NCBI GenBank assembly: GCA_964518835.1
Contig: CAZFKU010000002.1
Location: 3,120-67,119, forward strand
Direction: 5' to 3'
Source of the DNA: an uncultured bacterium
GTDB taxonomy: Bacteria > Fidelibacterota > Marinisomatia > Marinisomatales > AB-629-J13
DNA length: 64,000 bases
The position numbers and the translations under genes are program-made. The notes beneath the pieces were generated by a model. The model worked only from the letters and a program-made list of their open reading frames with translations, was not told where the DNA came from and ran no database searches. This document shows, in pieces, positions 17,580-45,294 of the stretch (position 1 is its first letter; the number at the start of each line of letters is the position of its first letter).

Positions 17580-18575
17580 ATGGAGGCAAACAGCCCGAAA
17601 GCAAATTCGTTGCGGACAGTAACTGTTCGTCTGATAACAGATAAACCGGTAAAGAAAACACCATATCAGGTAAAAGGTGTTTTTATGAATCAATTTGCCG
17701 ATGATCAAGTTATTCCCCTGCTTAACGGACAATACAGAAAAGAATTCCTGTATCCACGAATTCAAGTGAAGATACTGAATGAACAGATTTATCTTGTAGG
17801 AATTAATGAAGGTGTGGACTCCTTACTTTCATTAAGTGAAAAATTTAACACTCTTGATTTTGGAAACATTACCTTTCTGGTAAATGATGTAAATGTTGAT
17901 GAGCAGACAGAAATATTGATTCCGTCCAATCGCCCTGTGCGATATAGATTCATTTCTCCCTGGGTGGCATTAAACCCGGTTACAAATAAGCGATACAGAG
18001 ATTTGGATAACTCAGGCAGGATAAAATATCTTAGTCAGTTACTCACACATAATATTTTATTTTTAGGGAAGGAAATGGGGGTTACAATTAATACAAAAGT
18101 TTACACTTGGCTTTCGCTTTCATCTTTGTTCCCAAAACCAGTTGGAGAGAAAAATTGGGGCTCATTTTACGGAGGATTTAAAACCAATTTTATTCTCCCG
18201 AATTACATTGGTCTGGGCAACGGGATTACACGGGGTTTTGGTACTATTTACGGATTATTTGATCCGGATGCATTTTCTTTTGATGAAGAATCACTTAAGG
18301 AAAAAACAAAAAAACAAAATAAACCAAAATTTAAAGAGAAATCCAAAAACAGCAGTTCACCAACCAGATACCGAAAGAAAAAAAAGGTGTCAAATAAAAA
18401 AATAAGCGATGGAACCACGCCGTTTAAAACAAAAAAGTCGAAAAATAATAAAAGGAAAAAGAAAACACACCCCCAGTTTGCTGATCAGGTTAAAAAAACT
18501 GAATCTAATGGTAAATCATCTGATGATTTTAATTTTAACCGGGGGAAATACCATAAAAAGCAGCATAAGTTTTAA
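17580..18575 (+). CDS. Cas6/RAMP-like protein (orphan) with a C-terminal lysine-rich tail
   Basis: 331 aa, AAGAGG SD. The core (about residues 1-235) has Cas6 size and layout (RTVTVRLIT...YQVKGVFMNQF; RYRFISPWVAL). It carries an exact RAMP glycine-rich loop G-h-G-x5-G-h-G = GLGNGITRGFG (residues 211-221, nt 18210-18242). The last 91 residues contain 29 Lys and 4 Arg by my count. Assigned from motifs by eye. Confidence 0.6.
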   Translation: MEANSPKANSLRTVTVRLITDKPVKKTPYQVKGVFMNQFADDQVIPLLNGQYRKEFLYPRIQVKILNEQIYLVGINEGVDSLLSLSEKFNTLDFGNITFLVNDVNVDEQTEILIPSNRPVRYRFISPWVALNPVTNKRYRDLDNSGRIKYLSQLLTHNILFLGKEMGVTINTKVYTWLSLSSLFPKPVGEKNWGSFYGGFKTNFILPNYIGLGNGITRGFGTIYGLFDPDAFSFDEESLKEKTKKQNKPKFKEKSKNSSSPTRYRKKKKVSNKKISDGTTPFKTKKSKNNKRKKKTHPQFADQVKKTESNGKSSDDFNFNRGKYHKKQHKF

Positions 18576-19860: not shown

Positions 19861-20067
19861 ATGAAAAAAGGAATTCATCCGGAGTACAAGACAGGAAAGG
19901 TCCACTGTGCATGCGGGAATGAGTTTGAAGTGTACAGTACTTTAGGCGATCAACGAATTGAAATTTGTAATGTATGTCATCCATTTTTTTCCGGTAAACA
20001 AAAACTGGTTGATACGGCAGGACGAATTGAAAAATTTGAGCAGAAATACGGAAAGACCTCTCCTTAA
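19861..20067 (+). CDS. rpmE: 50S ribosomal protein L31
   Basis: 68 aa. MKKGIHPEY...[21 protein letters not shown]; SD TAGGAG upstream. Confidence 0.95.
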
Positions 20068-20115: not shown

Positions 20116-21084
20116 ATGAGGATTTCAATTAAATCTCTGTTTATTATGAAGCCGGCTATTCTTGTGGGAGGACAGGCAGTGATTGAGGGTGTTATGATGC
20201 GTGTCCCCGGCGCAGTCGCAACGGCAGTACGGGACCCGAAAGGAAAAATCCTTATCAAACGAAAACCGTTTTTTTCTGTTATAGAAAAATCACCTTTTTG
20301 GAAAAAACCGGTTTTAAGAGGTGCGGCTTCTTTATTTGAAGCAATGAAATTAGGATATTCAACATTGCAATGGTCTGCTGATATTGCGATACCACCGGAA
20401 GAACCCGACCAAAAACAGAACAAGTTTGCAGATATTTTCACTACATTTTTTTCTGTAGGGTTAGCACTTTTTTTGTTTCTCATTCTTCCATTGTGGATAA
20501 CCACAAAATTCTTAAATGTTGAAAAAGATGCTTTCTGGTTTAACCTTATATCCGGTGGATTTCGCATTACTTTTTTTGTGATTTACTTAGCTTTGATATC
20601 TATGTTAAAAGATGTTCGCCGGCTGTTTAAATACCATGGCTCTGAACATAAAGTTGTGTATAATTTTGAGTCAGGGCAGGAACTGACTATTCAGAATGCA
20701 CAGTCCTTCCCCACTCAGCATCCACGCTGTGGTACAAGCTTTCTTTTTATCGTACTGCTTTCTGCAATATTAATTTTTGCTGTGGTGGATACGGTTATTA
20801 TTTCTGTGTTAGGCACCATTTCTCTGCCAATACGATTGTTGTTTCATATTCCCATGATTCCCATAGTTTCCGGAATTGGATATGAAGTTATAAAATTGAC
20901 TGCAAGAAATGAATCACTCATTTTCCGAATCTTGAGAAAACCGGGATTATGGCTGCAGAATATCACAACCCGTCCTCCCGAAGATGATATGGTGGAAGTT
21001 GCCATTGAAGCACTGAAATCTGCATTTGGGGATGAATACGAAAAAGTATCAGGTAAGGAATATGTTGCCGAGGCAATTGGATGA
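20116..21084 (+). CDS. DUF1385 family membrane protein (YqhQ-like)
   Basis: 322 aa. [29 protein letters not shown]. It sits in the usual rpmE / DUF1385 / prfA / prmC context. An alternative start is ATG 20146. Confidence 0.8.
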
Positions 21085-22151
21085 AAGAAAAGGTAATTGA
21101 AATAATTGACCATTTTGAGGATATTGAAAAACAGTTTTCCACTCCTGAAGTTATTGGCAATCCGGAACTCATGAAAAAAACAGCGCAGGAAAGAAGCCGC
21201 CTGGAACCGGTTGTGATAAAGGGCAGAGAATATATTGAATTAATTCAACAAATCGAAGAAGTTGAAGAAATATTACCCGGTGATGATGAAGAACTTATCC
21301 AATTAGCGAAAGAAGAATTGGCAGAACTGAGTACCAGAAAAATATTAATGGAAGAAGAACTGAAAATATTGCTTCTTCCCCGAAATCCAAACGATGATAA
21401 AAGTATAATCATGGAGATTCGAGCTGGGACAGGCGGAGAGGAAGCGGCTTTGTTTGCTGCTGATTTATTTCGGATGTATTCCCATTACGCAGAAAATGCA
21501 AATTTATCCTTAAAAATACTGGATGTGAATGAAACAGGAATTGGAGGATTTAAAAGCATCACATTCTCATTGAACGGCGAAGGAGCATATGGCAGGCTGA
21601 AGTTTGAAAGCGGTGTCCACCGGGTTCAAAGAGTTCCAAAAACAGAAGCAAGTGGTCGTCTGCATACTTCAGCTGCAACAGTGGCGGTTTTGCCGGAAGC
21701 CGAAGATGCTGATATTGAGGTGAGGGATGAAGATTTGAAAATAGACACATATCGAGCCAGCGGTGCCGGAGGTCAGCATGTCAATAAAACAGAATCGGCA
21801 ATACGGATAACACATTTACCAACGGGATTGGTGGTAACATGCCAGGATGAAAAATCCCAGCATAAAAACCGAACGGCTGCGATGAAAGTTCTGCGATCCA
21901 GATTACTTGCTGCTGAGGAAGAAAGATTGGCTCAGGAACGGGCGGAAACCCGCCGTTCATTGGTGTCAACAGGAGATCGTTCAGCGAAGATACGAACCTA
22001 TAATTTCCCTCAAAACAGGGTAACCGACCATCGGATAAATTATACTGCACATAATCTTGAAAATATGATAAACGGAGACTTGATACCATTTATCGAACAG
22101 CTTCAATTAGCAGAACAACAGGAACAGTTAACCGGCATAAATACAGGATGA
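21081..22151 (+). CDS. prfA: Peptide chain release factor 1
   Basis: 356 aa. PKTE tripeptide-anticodon region ([17 protein letters not shown]) and [20 protein letters not shown]. Confidence 0.96.
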
Positions 22152-23011
22152 AGAATTCAGAATTATCAACTCCATTACTGCATGAATTGATTTCATGGGG
22201 AGAAATGCAACTGAACCATCATCAAATCGAAAATCCACACCGAAATGTACTTTGGATGGCGAGTGATCTGTTTGATTGCAGAATGAGTGATCTGCCTTTC
22301 AGTCAAAAACCTGTTTCCTATCATCAGTTAAAAACATTCAAAAAATGGATTGGCCGAAGAGTAAATCATGAACCGGTGCAGAAAATCACCGGGAAAACAG
22401 AATTTTACGGATTGACTTTTTACCTAGATTCAGGAGTATTTATTCCCAGACCCGAAACAGAGAGATTGGTTGATGAAGTATTAGGTTTAATAACAAAACA
22501 GAACCCCATTTCAATATTAGATGTCGGAACGGGATCAGGCTGTTTAGCAGTTGCTTTGGCAAAAGAATGTGAAAATTCACAAATAACAGCGATAGACATT
22601 TCCACAAGAGCATTAAAAATAGCAAAAATAAACAGGGATTATCACGAGTTGAAAAATATCCGTTTTAAAAAGATGGATATTCTTACAGAAACTCCAAAAC
22701 ACACTTATGATTTGGTTATTTCCAATCCTCCCTACATTCCAAAAAAAGACATGAAGTTTTTAATGCCGGAGGTGATTGATCATGATCCAGTGTTAGCGCT
22801 GACAGATAATGCAGACGGATTAATTTTTTATAGATATTTAGCCAAACATTTCCATTCGCTTGTAAATCCAAACGGATATATGGTGTTAGAGACAGGAAGT
22901 AGAGAACACTCTTTCAAGGCAATAAAAATATTCTGTCATTATGGATATAATGCAGATTTGAAAAAAGATTACTCAGGAAATCACAGAGTTCTCATAGTAC
23001 AATCCAAATGA
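22148..23011 (+). CDS. prmC: Release factor glutamine N5-methyltransferase
   Basis: 287 aa. [31 protein letters not shown]. Confidence 0.9.
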
Positions 23012-23856
23012 ATTCCGTGGCAGATTATGTCCGCATTCTCCGCCCGATCAATATTATCATTTCTGCTGGGACTGTTGTTGTTTGTGCTGGTATTCTGAAT
23101 GCGTTCGAGAATATTTTTCTTCTCATTTCTACCGTTTTGACAGTAGGTTTATTTATAGGCGGTGCGAATATCTTCAATGACATTCAGGATAAAAAAGAAG
23201 ATAATATAAACAAACCAGAAAGACCCATAGCCGCCGGTCAAATTTCCTTGAAAGCAGCAGGAAATTATGCAAAAGTATTATTTATTTCAGGGGCTGGAAT
23301 GTGTTTTTTGCTTCCCCTGTCTGCGACTTTGCTTGTCTGGTTTATTGTCTTTCCTCTTCTGATATTTTACTCACTCAAATTGAAATCAATTCCTCTTGTG
23401 GGAAATGGTGTCATAGCTTTTTTATTGGGACTGACCTTTCTATTTTGCGGATTGGTTTTTGAAAATATTAATCCCATGTTCATCCCGGCAGGTCTTGCAT
23501 TTTCTTTGACATTAGTACGGGAATTGATAAAAGATATTGAAGACATGGAAGGAGACAAAAAATCGGGGTTAAGGACCTTTCCTATAATGTTTGGGCTGGA
23601 TAAAGCTGTTCAGCTGGTAATCCTGCTTTCGGTAGCAACAGGAATTGTCTCTGTTATTCCGTATTTTACAAATTTATATTCTGCATTTTATCTCATTCCG
23701 CTTGTCTTGGGAGTTGAGTTACCATTGACAATTGTTGTATTTTCGTTCATGAAATCACACTCCAGATCAACCGCCAGAAAATCATCCATTTTACTAAAAA
23801 TTGCCACCATCATGGGAATCATTTCAATATATACAGGAGCTAAAATTGGGACCTGA
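23008..23856 (+). CDS. UbiA-family prenyltransferase, archaeal DGGGP-synthase-like (geranylgeranylglycerol-phosphate geranylgeranyltransferase-like)
   Basis: 282 aa, about 8-9 TM helices. First Asp-rich motif NDIQDKKEDNINKPERPIAAG (NDxxDxxxD, nt 23176-23202). Second motif RELIKDIEDMEGDKKSGLRTFPIMFG. Both resemble DGGGPS-type UbiA proteins more than MenA/UbiA/CyoE types, from memory. Confidence 0.75.
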   Translation: MNSVADYVRILRPINIIISAGTVVVCAGILNAFENIFLLISTVLTVGLFIGGANIFNDIQDKKEDNINKPERPIAAGQISLKAAGNYAKVLFISGAGMCFLLPLSATLLVWFIVFPLLIFYSLKLKSIPLVGNGVIAFLLGLTFLFCGLVFENINPMFIPAGLAFSLTLVRELIKDIEDMEGDKKSGLRTFPIMFGLDKAVQLVILLSVATGIVSVIPYFTNLYSAFYLIPLVLGVELPLTIVVFSFMKSHSRSTARKSSILLKIATIMGIISIYTGAKIGT

Positions 23857-26800
23857 ATTCGTCCATTTGCATAACCATTCCGATTATAGTCTTTTGGATG
23901 GTGCCCAACCCATCAAACAAATGGTAAACAGGACTGAAGAACTGGGAATGAATTCCATTGCTTTAACCGATCATGGAAATATGTTTGGTGCAGTAGATTT
24001 TTACCTGCAATGTGAGAAAAAAGGAATTAATCCGATTATCGGGATGGAAGCTTATATTGTGGGGAAAGGAAGTCGTACAATTAAGCAGACGGCTCAAGGT
24101 CACCGTCAGCGGACGTTTCATATTATCCTTCTGTGTAAAGATATACAAGGTTATAAAAATCTCATGAAACTGTCTTCCTCATCATTTCTTGATGGATTTT
24201 ATTATAAACCCCGAATGGATAAAGAAATATTGAAAGACCATTCAGAAGGTCTCATAGGACTTTCTGCCTGTCTGAATGGTGAAATAACCAGACTTCACTT
24301 GGACGGTAAGGATCTGGAAGCCCAGCATGCTGTTGAAGAACATGTAAACATTTTCGGGAAAGATAATTTTTATATGGAAATTCAACGGCACGGAATGGAG
24401 GAAGACCGTGCATACGATAAAAACCTGCAGCTGGCAAAACAGATGGGTCTCAAATATGTTGCCACCAATGATGTTCATTACACTCGCAAAAAACACTGGG
24501 ATTCCCATGATATTCTCATCTGCCTTCAAAGCAATCATTTTCGCAGTGATGAAAAAAGAATGAGATATAAGAAAGAAGAATTTTTTCTCCGCTCTCCTGA
24601 AGAGATGAGAAAATTGTTTGATGATTTACCGGAAGCCTGCGATGCCACCCTTGAAATTGCAGAAAGATGTAATTTGAAATTGAATTTTGATTCATATCAT
24701 TTACCGGTTTTTACCATTCCTGAAAATTCAAAGGAAAAGGATTCGGATTTGTATCTCCAGTCCCTGTGCATGGATGGTCTTAAGTCTTTGTATCCCCAAA
24801 TAACATCTGAGTTAACAGAACGTTTGACCTACGAACTTTCTGTGATAAAACAGATGGGATTTTCAGGATATTTTTTGATTACAGCTGATTTTGTTGACTA
24901 TGCGAAGAAGCACCATATACCCGTAGGTCCCGGAAGGGGATCTGCAGCGGGGAGTCTGGTCTCTTATGTTTTAGGGATTACAACCATTGATCCAATGAAA
25001 CACGACCTTCTTTTTGAACGGTTTTTAAATCCCGAACGGGTTAGTCTTCCTGATATAGATATTGATTTTTGTTATGAACGCCGTGGAGAGGTCATTCAAT
25101 ATATTAAAAATAAATATGGAGAGAAATCCGTAACCCAAATTATTACTTTTGGGAAGATGAAAGCACGTCAGGCTGTGAAGGATGTGGGGCGGGTTATGGG
25201 ATATCCATTTGGAGAAGTAGATAAGATCGCAAAGGAAATTCCGGAAGAATTAAATATATCCCTGAATGGTGCATTAAAGAAAAGTCCGACATTCAAGAAA
25301 ATGGCAGATGGTGAATACAAAGAATTAATCGAACATTCTCTCATTCTGGAAGGGGTAAACCGCCATGCATCTACTCATGCAGCTGGGGTGGTTATTGTGC
25401 CGGGAGACCTCACGGACTTTATTCCGCTCTATAAATCATCAAAAGGAGATGTGACCAGCCAGTATGATATGAAAGGCTTGGAAAAATTAGGGTTGTTAAA
25501 GATGGATTTTCTCGGCCTTAGAAATCTTACAGTAATCGAGCGTACACTGGAATTGATCGAGAAGAATCATGAAAAGGTGGACATTCAATCTATCCCGCTT
25601 GATGATGAGGATGTGTATGATCTTTTTACACAGGGACTCACAATCGGAATCTTCCAGTTTGAGTCAGCAGGGATGCGGGAGTTTTTAACAAAGTTGAAAC
25701 CCACCTGTATCGAAGACCTTATCGCAATGAATGCGTTGTACAGACCGGGCCCCATGAGCAATATTGACGATTTTATCCAACGGAAACAGGGTAAAAGAAC
25801 AATTGATTACATGCATAAAAACCTTGAGGATATTTTAAAAGAAACGTATGGAATTATTGTTTATCAGGAACAGGTCATGCAAATAGCAAACCAGATTGCA
25901 GGATTTTCTCTGGCAAATGCAGACTTAATGCGTAGGGCAATGGGAAAGAAGGATGTTGCACTAATGAAGCGGATGAAAACTGATTTTGTTGAAGGGTCTG
26001 AAAAAAATAAAATCAGTGCCCGAAAGGCAAAAGCCATATTTGCCTTGATTGAAAAATTTGCTGAATATGGTTTTAACAAAAGTCACTCCACTGCTTATGC
26101 CTACATTGCCTATCAAACCGCATGGTTAAAAACACATTATGCTGTTGAATTTATGTCTGCAAATCTCACCAGTTTTATGTCCGACACCAATCGAATAGTC
26201 CGGCTTATTAATGAATGCAGAAAATTAAACATACAAGTTCACCCTCCGGATATAAATATATCCGAAATTGATTTTCAGCCTCTTGATAATCAGAGCATCT
26301 CTTATGGTTTGAATGCTATAAAAAACGTTGGTTCCTCTGCGCTGAAAAGTATTATTGATGAAAGAGAAAAAAAGGGAGAGTTTAAATCAATCTTCGATTT
26401 TTGTTCCCGGGTTGTATCTGCATCATTGAACAGAAAAGTGATTGAAAGTTTAATTAAAGCAGGTGCGCTGGATTGTCTTCCCGGAAAACGATCTGAAATG
26501 TTTGCTTCTATCGATAATGTTCTCAAATATGGACAAAGTATCCAGATCAATCAGAATAGAAATCAGGTGGATATTTTTGGCGGAAAAGATGGTGCAAACT
26601 CGATGATAAAAGAACCGAAATTGCATGAAAGTGAACCGTGGAGTGAAAAGCAATCTCTCACATTTGAGAAAGAAGTTTTGGGAACGTATGTGTCCGGTCA
26701 CCCCCTGATAAAACATGCAGATATAATTGAGAAATATGCTACCTATGATTTTACGGAAGCCATTCCAGCCGCTACAGGAAAATCATTCAGGTTGGGCGGT

Positions 26801-27277
26801 TTGATTGAAGGAATAACCCGAAATTTCGATAAAAACGGGAGAGAATGGGCACGAATAAAAATGGAATGTATCGGAGGAAGGGCAGAAATTATTGCTTTTA
26901 ATGATATATTTTCTCGGTTTAAAGAAATAATTAAGGAAGGAAATATTGTGTTTGTTTCAGGAAACCCAGAAGATAGATCTGAAACTCGAAATGTAAAAAT
27001 GTTAGCAGAGAACATTGTCTCACTGGACAAGGCAGAAGACCAATTGTCCAAACATTTAAATATATTGGTTAATCCCGATTCCATTACTACCAAGGAAATT
27101 GACGAGCTTTATAAAATCGCTGAGGATTATCAGGGCGATACACGGTTGGTGTTTCATATCCCCAAAAACGGAAGACACCAGCAAATTCTCGCACACAATA
27201 TTCGTGTTTCAACCGATAGTAAATTCTGCAGTAAGCTGAAAAAAATATACGGTAAACAGAATATATGGATTGAATGA
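23846..27277 (+). CDS. dnaE: DNA polymerase III alpha subunit
   Basis: The ORF track opens at TTG 23801. TTG 23846 has a GGAG SD with a 6-nt spacer and gives [20 protein letters not shown] (PHP domain). Also [26 protein letters not shown], the OB fold and C-terminus. Confidence 0.95.
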
Positions 27278-27717
27278 TTGCAGTAGTACAACGTGTCTCT
27301 AAAGGAAATGTAACCATCCATGGAGAGGTAAAAAGCGCTATTCAAAACGGGCTGGTTGTTTTGATAGGCGTTATGCAGGATGATACGGAAGAAGATGTCA
27401 ATTTTTTAGTGGAAAAAATTTCGGGATTCAGGATTTTCAATGATGAGGATGATAAAATGAATCTATCTGTTAAGGACATCAAAGGCTCTGTTTTAGTGAT
27501 AAGCCAATTTACACTTTGCGGGGATTGGAAAAAAGGAAGGCGTCCCAGTTTTATCCATGCCGCCCCGCCTGAGAAAGGGAAACATCTATACGAACGGTTT
27601 ATGTATCAATTACGTGAAAAGGAAATTCCTGTAGAATCAGGAGAATTCGGTGCGATGATGTCAGTTAACTTGACAAATGAAGGACCGGTTACTTTTGTTC
27701 TGGATAGTAAAATTTAA
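27274..27717 (+). CDS. dtd: D-aminoacyl-tRNA deacylase
   Basis: 147 aa. [27 protein letters not shown]. Confidence 0.93.
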
Positions 27718-44556: not shown

Positions 44557-45294
44557 ATGGCACTGACCGTATCCATCCATAATAAAATCAACATCCTGAA
44601 GAAATGGACAGTTTTTCTTATGTTTTTTAATTTTGGAATTTCCCAATGGGCTGCTTTTGATATTCAACAGGAAGCATATTCCTCTGTGGATTTAAGAACA
44701 TTTATAGAAAGCACAACTTTTGGATTATCAGCAAACCCAGCATATATGCTCTCTTCTGAAAAAAGAGTGAATGTTGGAATGGGATTTTCCAGAAACATAT
44801 TGCTCCATTCCAACAGGTATCAGAACCAATTTTCCGGATGGTTTCCAAAATTTTCTGTGGATGTTTTTATAACGAATAACCTGTATCTTATAGGACGCCT
44901 AAGCCAGTTTTATTCTAATGAAGATATTATCCAATTTCACAATTACGGATTCGCATTAACATCTGGAGAAGATGATTCTTATCCATGGCAGAGCTCTGTT
45001 GTATTTTGTAATTTGGCGGGACCTCGAGATTTTGCATTAAGGTCGGTATCTTTAAAAATGATAACACGGATACAGATGATTGGTCACCAAGTTCAGATGG
45101 GGATTGGGAAAGAAATGTATTCAACAACATTTTACATTAATGATGTTAATTTTCCATCCAAAATGAAAGGAGAAATAAATTATCTCTTGCTGGGAATGCA
45201 GTTTGAAAGAAACTTATTCCGGATTATGCCACAAATCCGGTTACATCCAAGGTTAATTGGAACATCCGTTAGGATGACTTGGGGTATAGGCTGA
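44557..45294 (+). CDS. Hypothetical protein, possible outer-membrane beta-barrel
   Basis: 245 aa. Hydrophobic leader (WTVFLMFFNFGISQWAA) and alternating-residue strands. No recognisable family. Embedded between lpxA and dxr. Confidence 0.4.
   Translation: MALTVSIHNKINILKKWTVFLMFFNFGISQWAAFDIQQEAYSSVDLRTFIESTTFGLSANPAYMLSSEKRVNVGMGFSRNILLHSNRYQNQFSGWFPKFSVDVFITNNLYLIGRLSQFYSNEDIIQFHNYGFALTSGEDDSYPWQSSVVFCNLAGPRDFALRSVSLKMITRIQMIGHQVQMGIGKEMYSTTFYINDVNFPSKMKGEINYLLLGMQFERNLFRIMPQIRLHPRLIGTSVRMTWGIG

Follow-up and report, generated by a model that had tools for sequence, protein, structure and literature searches.

A stretch of 64 kb (64,000 nucleotides, hereafter the window) from an uncultured marine bacterium of the Marinimicrobia (SAR406 / Neomarinimicrobiota), a phylum that ranks among the most abundant bacteria in the dark ocean, was analyzed around a tight co-directional run of genes that begins with rpmE and extends to dtd (Table 1). 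The operon members listed in a first-pass annotation of this DNA, namely rpmE, prfA, prmC, dnaE and dtd, were all identified by Pfam or NCBIfam models, and the open reading frame for a UbiA-family protein between prmC and dnaE was present as described there. A DUF1385 gene, absent from that list, stands between rpmE and prfA. From the DUF1385 gene to dtd, all junctions are overlaps of 4 or 11 nt. The ATGA shared by the prmC stop and the start of the UbiA-family gene, pointed out earlier, is also kept in relatives, and the proposed dnaE start within the last 11 nt of the UbiA-family gene is preceded by an AGGAG and agrees with the relatives, where the homologous codon is ATG (lineages L100, L007 and L188) or TTG (L186). 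The same TTG was chosen by gene callers on several public copies, yielding the 1143-aa product. Since relatives start at the homologous codon and a later start would cost the PHP motif its first His, this TTG was taken as the dnaE start. Promoters and terminators predicted near the operon were no more numerous than those in shuffled sequence, and Rfam matches and CRISPR-like arrays were absent from the window.

Table 1. Features of the rpmE–dtd gene run and of the UbiA-family protein encoded within it (coordinates in the window).
Feature	Coordinates	Strand	Basis
rpmE (ribosomal protein L31), first gene of the run	19861..20067	+	Pfam Ribosomal_L31 E 9e-30; NCBIfam L31 above cut-off
DUF1385 gene	20116..21084	+	Pfam DUF1385 E 9e-76; stop overlaps prfA start by 4 nt
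prfA (release factor 1)	21081..22151	+	NCBIfam PRK00591, 494 bits vs cut-off 400
prmC (release-factor glutamine N5-methyltransferase)	22148..23011	+	NCBIfam TIGR03534, 243.8 bits vs cut-off 199
DGGGP-synthase-like UbiA-family prenyltransferase, 282 aa	23008..23856	+	ATG start; Pfam, NCBIfam, PDB 6m31, AF2/Foldseek
ATGA, UbiA-gene start over prmC stop	23008..23011	+	sequence
Asp-rich motif 1, N57-D58-x2-D61-x3-D65 then INKPERP	23176..23238	+	= MjDGGGPS N62/D66/D70 (6m31 alignment)
Motif 2, Y121-x4-K126	23368..23385	+	= MjDGGGPS Y125/K130 (6m31 alignment)
Asp-rich motif 3, R171-E-x3-D176-x2-D179-x3-D183-KKSG	23518..23595	+	= MjDGGGPS D180/D183/D187 (6m31 alignment)
11-nt overlap, dnaE start (TTG) to UbiA-gene stop (TGA)	23846..23856	+	sequence
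dnaE (DNA polymerase III alpha subunit), 1143 aa from TTG 23846	23846..27277	+	NCBIfam PRK05673, 1424.6 bits vs cut-off 1002
dtd (D-aminoacyl-tRNA deacylase)	27274..27717	+	NCBIfam TIGR00256, 199 bits vs cut-off 101.5; start overlaps dnaE stop by 4 nt

The frame between prmC and dnaE is a real gene rather than a chance ORF, because residues 32–259 of its product matched the Pfam UbiA family (PF01040) well above the gathering threshold (125.8 versus 34.2 bits, E 2e-36) and a protein search retrieved 117 homologues. The AF2 model of the protein (pLDDT 94.2) consists of a short N-terminal helix and nine long helices, and this all-helical polytopic fold together with two Asp-rich motifs (aa 57–65 and 176–183) places it in the UbiA superfamily. 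In Foldseek searches the top match of the model was 6m31_A, the DGGGP synthase of M. jannaschii (MjDGGGPS), with a TM score of 0.77; matches to 4tq3, 4od5, UBIAD1 and DPPR synthase were also obtained. The same M. jannaschii structure was best when solved structures were searched by sequence, with a full-length alignment (E 6e-29). An identical protein carries the NCBI name geranylgeranylglycerol-phosphate geranylgeranyltransferase (DGGGP synthase). By profiles, solved structures and AF2 model, the gene product is thus closest to archaeal DGGGP synthase, as the first-pass annotation had proposed from two peptides, NDIQDKKEDNINKPERPIAAG (aa 57–77) and RELIKDIEDMEGDKKSGLRTFPIMFG (aa 171–196), both of which are present.

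These peptides contain motifs 1 and 3. In a set of 40 homologues eleven positions were invariant and coincided with the catalytic motifs: N57, D58, D61 and D65 of motif 1, Y121 of motif 2, where K126 was at least 90% conserved, and R171, E172, D179, G182 and D183 of motif 3 were among the invariant residues. In MjDGGGPS, mutation of N62, D66, D70, Y125, K130, D180, D183 or D187 kills activity or GGGP binding (PMC9385802), and the counterparts of all eight (N57, D61, D65, Y121, K126, D176, D179 and D183) are kept. Conservation of these residues is necessary but insufficient for DGGGPS identity, because they are largely common to other UbiA subfamilies.

Profile scores were compared across the superfamily. 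The two best NCBIfam models were both of the archaeal DGGGPS type, PRK12884 with 193.5 bits (cut-off 269) and PRK12882 with 183.5 bits (cut-off 296), while the other two models of the DGGGPS set (PRK12882/12883/12884/12872) gave 138.5 bits (cut-off 353) and 114.4 bits (cut-off 288), so that none of the four curated equivalog cut-offs was reached by the protein although these models ranked best. A quinone (UbiA/MenA/MqnP), haem O (CyoE/CtaB) or (bacterio)chlorophyll synthase mis-assigned by likeness of motifs could in principle give such a picture: all these families have one fold in common and carry both NDxxDxxxD and DxxDxxxD, ApUbiA and AfUbiA matched the AF2 model with TM 0.64–0.74, and chlorophyll synthase was the second-best solved relative (E 2e-15). 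However, against the 193.5 bits of the DGGGPS type, ChlG/BchG models scored 54–71 bits and below their cut-offs (TIGR01476 71.1 versus 212; PRK07566 67.5 versus 313), UbiA models 35–41 (TIGR01474 34.8 versus 275), CyoE 41.5 (TIGR01473, cut-off 210), MenA at most 27.5 (cut-offs 264–277) and MqnP 22. The UbiA, MenA and CyoE models were neither best match nor above cut-off, and with scores that in whole bits do not exceed 41 they bear out the poorer fit that had been claimed for these enzymes. Identity was 16–20% to E. coli UbiA, MenA and CyoE versus 29.5% to MjDGGGPS, and adjacent quinone, haem-copper oxidase or photosynthesis genes were absent. On the profile scores, MenA, UbiA, CyoE and ChlG identities were rejected, and a mis-assigned enzyme of these kinds is close to refuted.

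In a neighbor-joining tree (300 bootstraps, support counted by bipartitions), the Marinimicrobia proteins formed a monophyletic clade with 82% bootstrap, located amid MjDGGGPS and sequences from Lokiarchaeota, Cloacimonadota and Bacteroidetes; the E. coli enzymes UbiA, MenA and CyoE, and also ChlG, fell outside, by a split with a support of only 30–44%. Published trees are likewise weakly resolved (Coleman et al.). Because the protein scores below the NCBI DGGGPS cut-offs and the deep nodes of the tree are poorly supported, it is best described as DGGGPS-like rather than as a proven orthologue. The family itself is already known in Marinimicrobia, where homologues have been reported by two papers, so that no new enzyme family is involved, in keeping with the earlier statement that it occurs in FCB bacteria.

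The gene order prmC-UbiA-dnaE was found to be kept across Marinimicrobia lineages whose DnaE proteins are only 48–57% identical, and was not found in the DGGGPS-like UbiA loci from outside the phylum that were compared, Bacteroidetes, Rhodothermales and Poribacteria among them. The 4-nt overlap of prmC and the UbiA-family gene (ATGA or TTGA) also occurs in L100, L186, L007 and L008, and is missing in L188 (27-nt gap) and L009 (gap of about 490 nt). The DUF1385 gene is retained in L007, L008 and L009 and lost in L187. Tight overlaps could make deletion of a gene costly, and the UbiA-family gene might then be a relic, decaying or without function, that dates from an ancient archaeal-to-FCB transfer and persists only through its position between essential, translationally coupled genes; coupling has indeed been lost in some lineages, with four genes inserted in L008 and gaps in L009. 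Nevertheless, an intact ORF was present in all lineages examined, even at 36% identity, and in the same lineages UbiA identity (36–48%) compares with 38–43% for PrmC, so that it evolves no faster than its neighbor. Together with the eleven invariant positions at the catalytic motifs and the confidently folded model, this makes a relic highly improbable. The gene is neither accessory nor recently transferred in Marinimicrobia, locked as it is between essential genes with overlapping frames, and the phylum-wide conservation of its position is new.

A DGGGP synthase would act on the product of a GGGPS. Among the large ORFs of the 64-kb window, all of which were scanned with Pfam, there was no GGGPS/PcrB, G1P-dehydrogenase-type, CarS, geranylgeranyl reductase (GGR) or trans-polyprenyl synthase gene, and tblastn of the window with GGGPS, GGR and IPPS queries found no such gene, in line with the first-pass annotation, which had noted the lack of GGGPS/PcrB and G1P dehydrogenase there. 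A scan of genomes showed that two named genomes of marine Neomarinimicrobiota encode GGGPS (E 1e-43 and 9e-42 to Pfam PcrB). In Marinimicrobia it lies in the context accBC-gcvH-GGGPS-xerC, with accB-accC-gcvH upstream and thus beside genes of fatty-acid biosynthesis, distinct from the cluster of the UbiA-family gene, and this phylum-specific context recurred in 34 metagenome loci over a wide GC range. This partner, fixed in a separate housekeeping cluster of marine Marinimicrobia, is the second new element. One of the 34 loci, L181, was close to the window in composition (GC 0.39; tetranucleotide r = 0.88, self-calibration 0.72–0.94); other Marinimicrobia gave r of about 0.65 and one Bacteroidetes locus 0.80, and as tetranucleotides do not discriminate at phylum level they were used only as a hint that L181 belongs to the same population. 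The earlier reading had been made to depend on a GGGPS-like partner in the genome; such a partner exists in marine Marinimicrobia, an answer that holds at the level of the phylum only. In an attempt to link the two genes within one assembly, the assemblies of P0018, P0021 and P0038 proved to differ from those of L064 and L065. With a Cloacimonadota GGGPS as protein query, the best 120 matches were all Cloacimonadota-like, with no Marinimicrobia GGGPS among them, and an exhaustive search of GGGPS representatives, of which 30 were named, returned only Ignavibacteria, Flavobacteriales, Marinilabiliaceae and Thermofilum. P0265, considered as a Marinimicrobia GGGPS, was rejected as belonging to Delongbacteria.

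The literature is split on whether GGGPS and the UbiA-family gene co-occur in Marinimicrobia genomes; in the supplement of Villanueva et al. the two were not found together in single genomes of this group, and among FCB phyla G1PDH was detected solely in Fibrobacteres and Cloacimonetes (Coleman et al.). These observations bear on the possibility that the enzyme is a DGGGPS-derived paralogue with another acceptor, such as a bacterial lyso-lipid (acyl- or alkyl-glycerol-3-phosphate), a polyprenyl phosphate or some other membrane molecule, which would make no archaeal-type diethers and need no GGGPS. Such a divergence would fit the sub-cut-off scores, the well-supported clade of its own (82–99% bootstrap) with about 30% identity to any characterized DGGGPS, the position of the gene, never beside GGGPS, GGR or IPPS in the Marinimicrobia loci examined, and the published surveys, in which neither the pair of genes in a single Marinimicrobia genome nor G1PDH was found. 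Villanueva et al. proposed a divergent activity for divergent Bacteroidetes copies, many Marinisomatota MAGs carry the bacterial ether-lipid genes Ger and Agps, so that alkyl-glycerol acceptors may exist (PMC11868695), and UbiA-family enzymes group by acceptor, which small changes are able to shift (PMC9385802). Yet the genomes of those surveys, of the 2017 era, were mostly partial SAGs and MAGs, and the residues that bind or position GGGP in MjDGGGPS (N62, Y125 and the Asp residues of motifs 1 and 3) are all kept. A lone DGGGPS-like enzyme is, moreover, less likely because GGGPS exists in marine Marinimicrobia, fixed in a core-gene context over a wide GC range. A change of acceptor is accordingly regarded as possible but rather doubtful.

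The reading preferred, and held to be somewhat probable, is that of a prenyltransferase of the DGGGPS branch that makes di-O-prenylglyceryl phosphate from the GGGPS product and is co-expressed with a housekeeping unit. The protein would be a polytopic, Mg2+-dependent inner-membrane enzyme that belongs, within the UbiA superfamily, to the DGGGP-synthase branch. Most likely it takes a polyprenyl chain, probably geranylgeranyl, from its diphosphate and attaches it to a mono-prenyl-glyceryl phosphate at the hydroxyl that is still free; this acceptor would be supplied by the GGGPS/PcrB homologue of the phylum. The resulting di-O-prenylglyceryl phosphate would be an archaeal-type ether-lipid core, which CdsA-type bacterial enzymes could process further. 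Genes for CdsA are often located near uppS and dxr, and an ORF of the window in such a position (44557–45294) was considered as a divergent CdsA; it had no family match, and its sequence resembles a secreted or outer-membrane protein, not a polytopic enzyme. DUF1385-prfA-prmC-UbiA-dnaE-dtd may form a single transcription and translation unit, in which ribosomes ending prmC would restart on the UbiA-family gene at the ATGA and those ending the latter would restart on dnaE through the 11-nt overlap. Because of this coupling, expression of the UbiA-family gene would go with that of the core genes for translation and replication, not with a regulon for stress or a niche; from gene arrangement alone, constitutive expression would be expected. 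The acceptor, the donor chain length, co-occurrence with GGGPS in the same genome, expression and the lipid product are all points that we infer.

Fixation of both the DGGGPS-like gene and GGGPS in core clusters argues for a constitutive and ancient function of the two Marinimicrobia ether-bond genes. It is a tentative and on balance unlikely proposition that Marinimicrobia constitutively make isoprenoid glycerol ether lipids alongside bacterial lipids, with both genes built into separate core operons before diversification of the phylum began. At issue in the debate on the lipid divide is whether archaeal-type ether lipids are truly produced by any bacterium in nature, and a mixed membrane, if true, would belong to the housekeeping traits of a bacterium abundant worldwide. 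Should the lipids be made, they would be a bacterial source of marine archaeol-type biomarkers, and what isoprenoid ether biomarkers mean in the ocean interior would have to be reconsidered; otherwise the UbiA-family enzyme would have a different acceptor, of interest in itself. Concrete test organisms are Fidelibacter multiformis, the one member of the phylum in culture, whose lipids have been analyzed as FAMEs only, and those with closed SAR406 genomes.

Comparison with characterized systems sets the protein in the following frame. The next-closest characterized UbiA subfamily is ChlG/BchG (PDB 9SAS), with 26% identity, E 2e-15 and a similar motif 3 (xDxxxxEGD), but at 71 versus 193.5 bits for the DGGGPS type and in a photosynthesis context that is absent here. 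MjDGGGPS (PDB 6M31/7BPU; EC 2.5.1.42) is nearly equal in length (283 versus 282 aa) and shares the architecture of one short and nine long helices predicted here by the model (TM 0.77, E 6e-29), as well as motifs 1 to 3 and the residues that mutation shows to be critical, at an identity of only about 29–30%. By contrast to M. jannaschii, the host here is a diderm bacterium, with the LPS genes lpxA/C/D and BamA in the window, and the gene sits in a translation and replication operon, with no G1PDH or CarS in the window. UbiA genes of Bacteroidetes, Rhodothermales and Poribacteria belong to the same subfamily (28–40% identity) and are known from sequence alone; the Rhodothermales homologue adjoins GGR and the Poribacteria clusters read UbiA..GGR-GGGPS, whereas none of these loci has the order prmC-UbiA-dnaE. 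The DGGGPS of Ca. Cloacimonetes (Cloacimonadota), an FCB-group member of the same subfamily with about 30–34% identity (a relative, P0071, matched the window protein with E 2e-22), is the only bacterial one with functional evidence, obtained by heterologous expression: together with its GGGPS, it yielded PG-archaeol in E. coli (Villanueva et al. 2020, PMC7852524). In Cloacimonadota the genes form a dedicated polyprenyl synthase-DGGGPS-GGGPS operon, whereas in Marinimicrobia they occupy two separate loci in different housekeeping clusters.

The gene that the first-pass annotation had placed inside an rpmE-prfA-prmC-dnaE-dtd operon, as a UbiA prenyltransferase resembling the archaeal enzyme that forms the second ether bond (DGGGPS), was recovered, and the two peptides quoted from its product were found at aa 57-77 and aa 171-196. 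The operon held as listed, except that a DUF1385 gene had been left out. An identical protein, P0001, is named 'geranylgeranylglycerol-phosphate geranylgeranyltransferase [Candidatus Marinimicrobia bacterium]' at NCBI and is encoded on contigs from MAG GCA_030745735.1, from a JGI marine metagenome and from Tara Oceans assemblies. The window (GC 38%) includes lpxA/C/D, fabZ, bamA, uppS and dxr, and therefore derives from an ordinary diderm bacterium with an MEP pathway. A 245-aa ORF with an N-terminal hydrophobic segment, lacking matches in Pfam or NCBIfam, looks from its sequence like a secreted or outer-membrane protein; on these grounds its identification as cdsA, a gene often near uppS and dxr, was rejected.

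Coordinates of genes and loci (window positions unless a locus is named)
Feature	Position	Strand	Remarks
Co-directional run	3567-33097	+	FemAB-like gene to class-V aminotransferase
Cas6b-like gene	17580-18575	+	between rho and aminotransferase
Cas6b-like gene, relatives L007; L008; L009	627-1631; 558-1553; 205-921		
rpmE	19861-20067	+	Pfam and NCBIfam
DUF1385 gene	20116-21084	+	Pfam and NCBIfam; between rpmE and prfA
prfA	21081-22151	+	Pfam and NCBIfam
prmC	22148-23011	+	Pfam and NCBIfam
UbiA-family gene	23008-23856	+	ATG start, 282 aa
dnaE	start TTG 23846	+	Pfam and NCBIfam; start supported by comparison with relatives
dtd	27274-27717	+	Pfam and NCBIfam
245-aa ORF	44557-45294	+	between lpxA and dxr
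GGGPS context, L064; L065	5198-14068; 125-9618		
Ferredoxin-GGR-GGGPS-ispE unit, L019	6600-9574		
Candidatus Poribacteria genomes with DGGGPS-like UbiA near GGGPS (L023, L024, L027, L028, L032, L034, L037, L049)	8001		GGGPS match

Pfam assigned the protein to the UbiA family (E 2e-36). The four top NCBIfam models were all of archaeal DGGGP-synthase type, scoring 193.5, 183.5, 138.5 and 114.4 bits, in no case reaching the curated cut-offs (269-353 bits); bacteriochlorophyll/chlorophyll synthases followed (at most 71 bits), and then UbiA, CyoE, MenA and MqnP (at most 41 bits). Among solved structures the best match, over the full length, was M. jannaschii DGGGPS (MjDGGGPS, 6M31; E 6e-29), chlorophyll synthase being second (E 2e-15). 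The ranking agrees with the initial preference for a DGGGPS-like protein over MenA, UbiA/COQ2 or haem O synthase, and a quinone, haem or chlorophyll prenyltransferase appears very improbable. An AlphaFold2 model built from 40 homologues (pLDDT 94.2, pTM 0.89) comprised nine long helices and a short N-terminal helix, and Foldseek returned 6M31 first (TM 0.77), with AfUbiA, ApUbiA, UBIAD1 and DPPR synthase behind. Mutagenesis of MjDGGGPS has shown that N62, D66, D70, Y125, K130, D180, D183 and D187 matter for catalysis or GGGP binding (PMC9385802); these align to N57, D61, D65, Y121, K126, D176, D179 and D183, and 11 positions in and around the catalytic motifs are invariant among 40 homologues. 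Pairwise identity with the protein was 29.5% for MjDGGGPS and 30% for a Cloacimonadota homologue, dropping to 26% for ChlG and to 16-20% for E. coli UbiA, MenA and CyoE. In a neighbour-joining tree that took in E. coli UbiA, MenA and CyoE, plus ChlG and MjDGGGPS, the protein fell inside a monophyletic Marinimicrobia clade (82-99% bootstrap) lying among archaeal and FCB DGGGPS-like sequences; deep nodes were unresolved, as in published trees (PMC6431249).

All junctions from the DUF1385 gene to dtd are 4-nt overlaps, except for an 11-nt overlap at UbiA/dnaE. The ATGA common to the UbiA start and the prmC stop was confirmed, and comparison supports the TTG proposed to start dnaE: the homologous codon is ATG in relatives L100, L007 and L188 and TTG in L186, with the same N-terminus in each (M plus 14 residues), and the PHP motif would lose its first histidine if translation began further downstream, where one public annotation sets the start. 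AGGAG precedes this TTG in the window and is not kept in more distant relatives, so that coupling probably relies on termination-reinitiation and not on a Shine-Dalgarno site. The DUF1385 gene, translationally coupled to prfA by its overlap, is kept in most Marinimicrobia relatives and lost in the lineage of homologue P0038 (L187). The surrounding co-directional run extends without interruption for about 30 kb and contains many stop/start codon overlaps. Promoter-like and terminator-like sites between about 18.5 and 29 kb did not exceed their frequency in shuffled sequence, and transcription-unit boundaries are thus not readable from the sequence.

Contigs carrying UbiA homologues were examined at falling identity. 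The order rho - Cas6b-like - aminotransferase - rpmE - DUF1385 - prfA - prmC - UbiA - dnaE - dtd recurred in five lineages: at 79% (L100-L105) and 48% (L007, a 2.14-Mb closed contig); at 45% (L187-L192) minus DUF1385; at 42% (L008) with four genes inserted between UbiA and dnaE; and at 36% (L009/L010, two Neomarinimicrobiota assemblies) with gaps in place of overlaps. Since DnaE is 48-57% and PrfA 58-69% identical to the window across these lineages, the prmC-UbiA-dnaE arrangement is older than deep splits of the phylum. UbiA (36-48% identity) and the adjacent PrmC (38-43%) have diverged to a similar degree, which argues for purifying selection; that the gene is a functionless relic seems highly unlikely. 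The solitary Cas6b-like gene matches Pfam Cas6b_N (E 2.5e-12) and Cas6b_C (E 5e-23), with nothing in NCBIfam, and is kept at the same position at 40-48% identity across Marinimicrobia lineages. The window contains no other cas genes and no CRISPR-like array (TRF reported only two short two-copy repeats), and the gene may encode a domesticated RNA endonuclease.

As first stated, the window holds no gene for GGGPS, the PcrB-family maker of the DGGGPS acceptor: neither GGGPS, GGR nor trans-polyprenyl synthase was found by tblastn, nor their Pfam families among its large ORFs. Protein-database searches from Cloacimonadota GGGPS reached no Marinimicrobia GGGPS. GTDB species genomes were then scanned with a GGGPS alignment, sampling 600 pattern matches and keeping the best 80, which included two marine Neomarinimicrobiota, SAG AM-311-E08 (L064) and Black Sea MAG BS750m-G69 (L065). 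Both encode clear PcrB-family members (E 1e-43 and 9e-42) in the context efp-accB-accC-gcvH-(gcvP)-GGGPS-(SIS)-xerC-M50 peptidase-FTCD-mutL, present in none of the 78 other named genomes among the best 80. Within this cluster, GGGPS comes directly after biotin carboxylase genes of fatty-acid synthesis. A metagenome scan with both sequences gave 80 loci (L106-L185), 34 of which carried at least four genes of the context (GC 0.27-0.55). Together with L064 and L065, these indicate that GGGPS is widespread in marine Marinimicrobia and occupies a fixed position in a housekeeping cluster, as the UbiA gene does in its own. For one of the 34, L181 (GC 0.39, on a 131-kb contig), tetranucleotide composition correlated with that of the window at 0.88, inside the 0.72-0.94 spanned by the window's own 8-kb pieces versus its remainder and higher than in other Marinimicrobia loci (about 0.65). 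The UbiA gene and GGGPS may co-occur in this genome.

The reading we favour, with somewhat more confidence than doubt, is that a putative DGGGPS-type enzyme would form the second prenyl ether on the product of GGGPS, its expression being tied by translational coupling to core translation and replication genes. A DGGGPS-derived enzyme acting on a different acceptor is a less probable, though serious, alternative; consistent with it are the sub-threshold NCBIfam scores, the separate Marinimicrobia clade, the separate locations of the UbiA gene and GGGPS, the lack of a known G1PDH, a published note that no single genome had yielded both genes, and the frequency of bacterial ether-lipid genes in Marinisomatota.

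The original observation was correct, and the analysis supports its interpretation. Neither the enzyme family, nor its occurrence in the phylum, nor the annotation of the gene is new, given the NCBI name and published surveys. As the first-pass annotation had noted for FCB bacteria, GGGPS and DGGGPS orthologues are on record: Coleman et al. 2019 (PMC6431249) surveyed 12 FCB phyla and reported both in every one, Ca. Marinimicrobia (genome CG1_02_48_14) among them, and found G1PDH in Fibrobacteres and Cloacimonetes alone. In Villanueva et al. 2020 (PMC7852524), co-localised Cloacimonetes GGGPS and DGGGPS yielded PG-archaeol in E. coli. No paper mentioning the operon context turned up in the literature searches. 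Added here are the phylum-wide conservation of prmC-UbiA-dnaE and the parallel fixation of GGGPS beside accBC-gcvH. For Fidelibacter multiformis, the sole cultured member of the phylum, the description gives fatty-acid methyl esters only.

In a low-GC (32%) diderm bacterium (L019; GCA_054040215.1, JBPKZK010000046.1), spoVG-prs-rplY-pth-rpsF-ssb-rpsR-rplI has a compact ferredoxin-GGR-GGGPS-ispE unit inserted on its upstream side; here, too, genes for archaeal-type lipids stand amid core genes. In Poribacteria, UbiA homologues 28-38% identical to the Marinimicrobia type are encoded upstream of GGGPS at a distance of 1.5-5 kb, several of the genomes having a GGR gene in the interval, a supporting association for the UbiA-GGGPS pairing; contrary to the 2020 report, such co-localisation is therefore not confined to Cloacimonadota. 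Unlike the Marinimicrobia gene, UbiA homologues are found in a polyprenyl synthase-UbiA-GGGPS arrangement in Cloacimonadota, as UbiA-GGR in Rhodothermales, as UbiA-rnhB in the lineage of homologue P0057, and upstream of EamA in a Bacteroidetes MAG.
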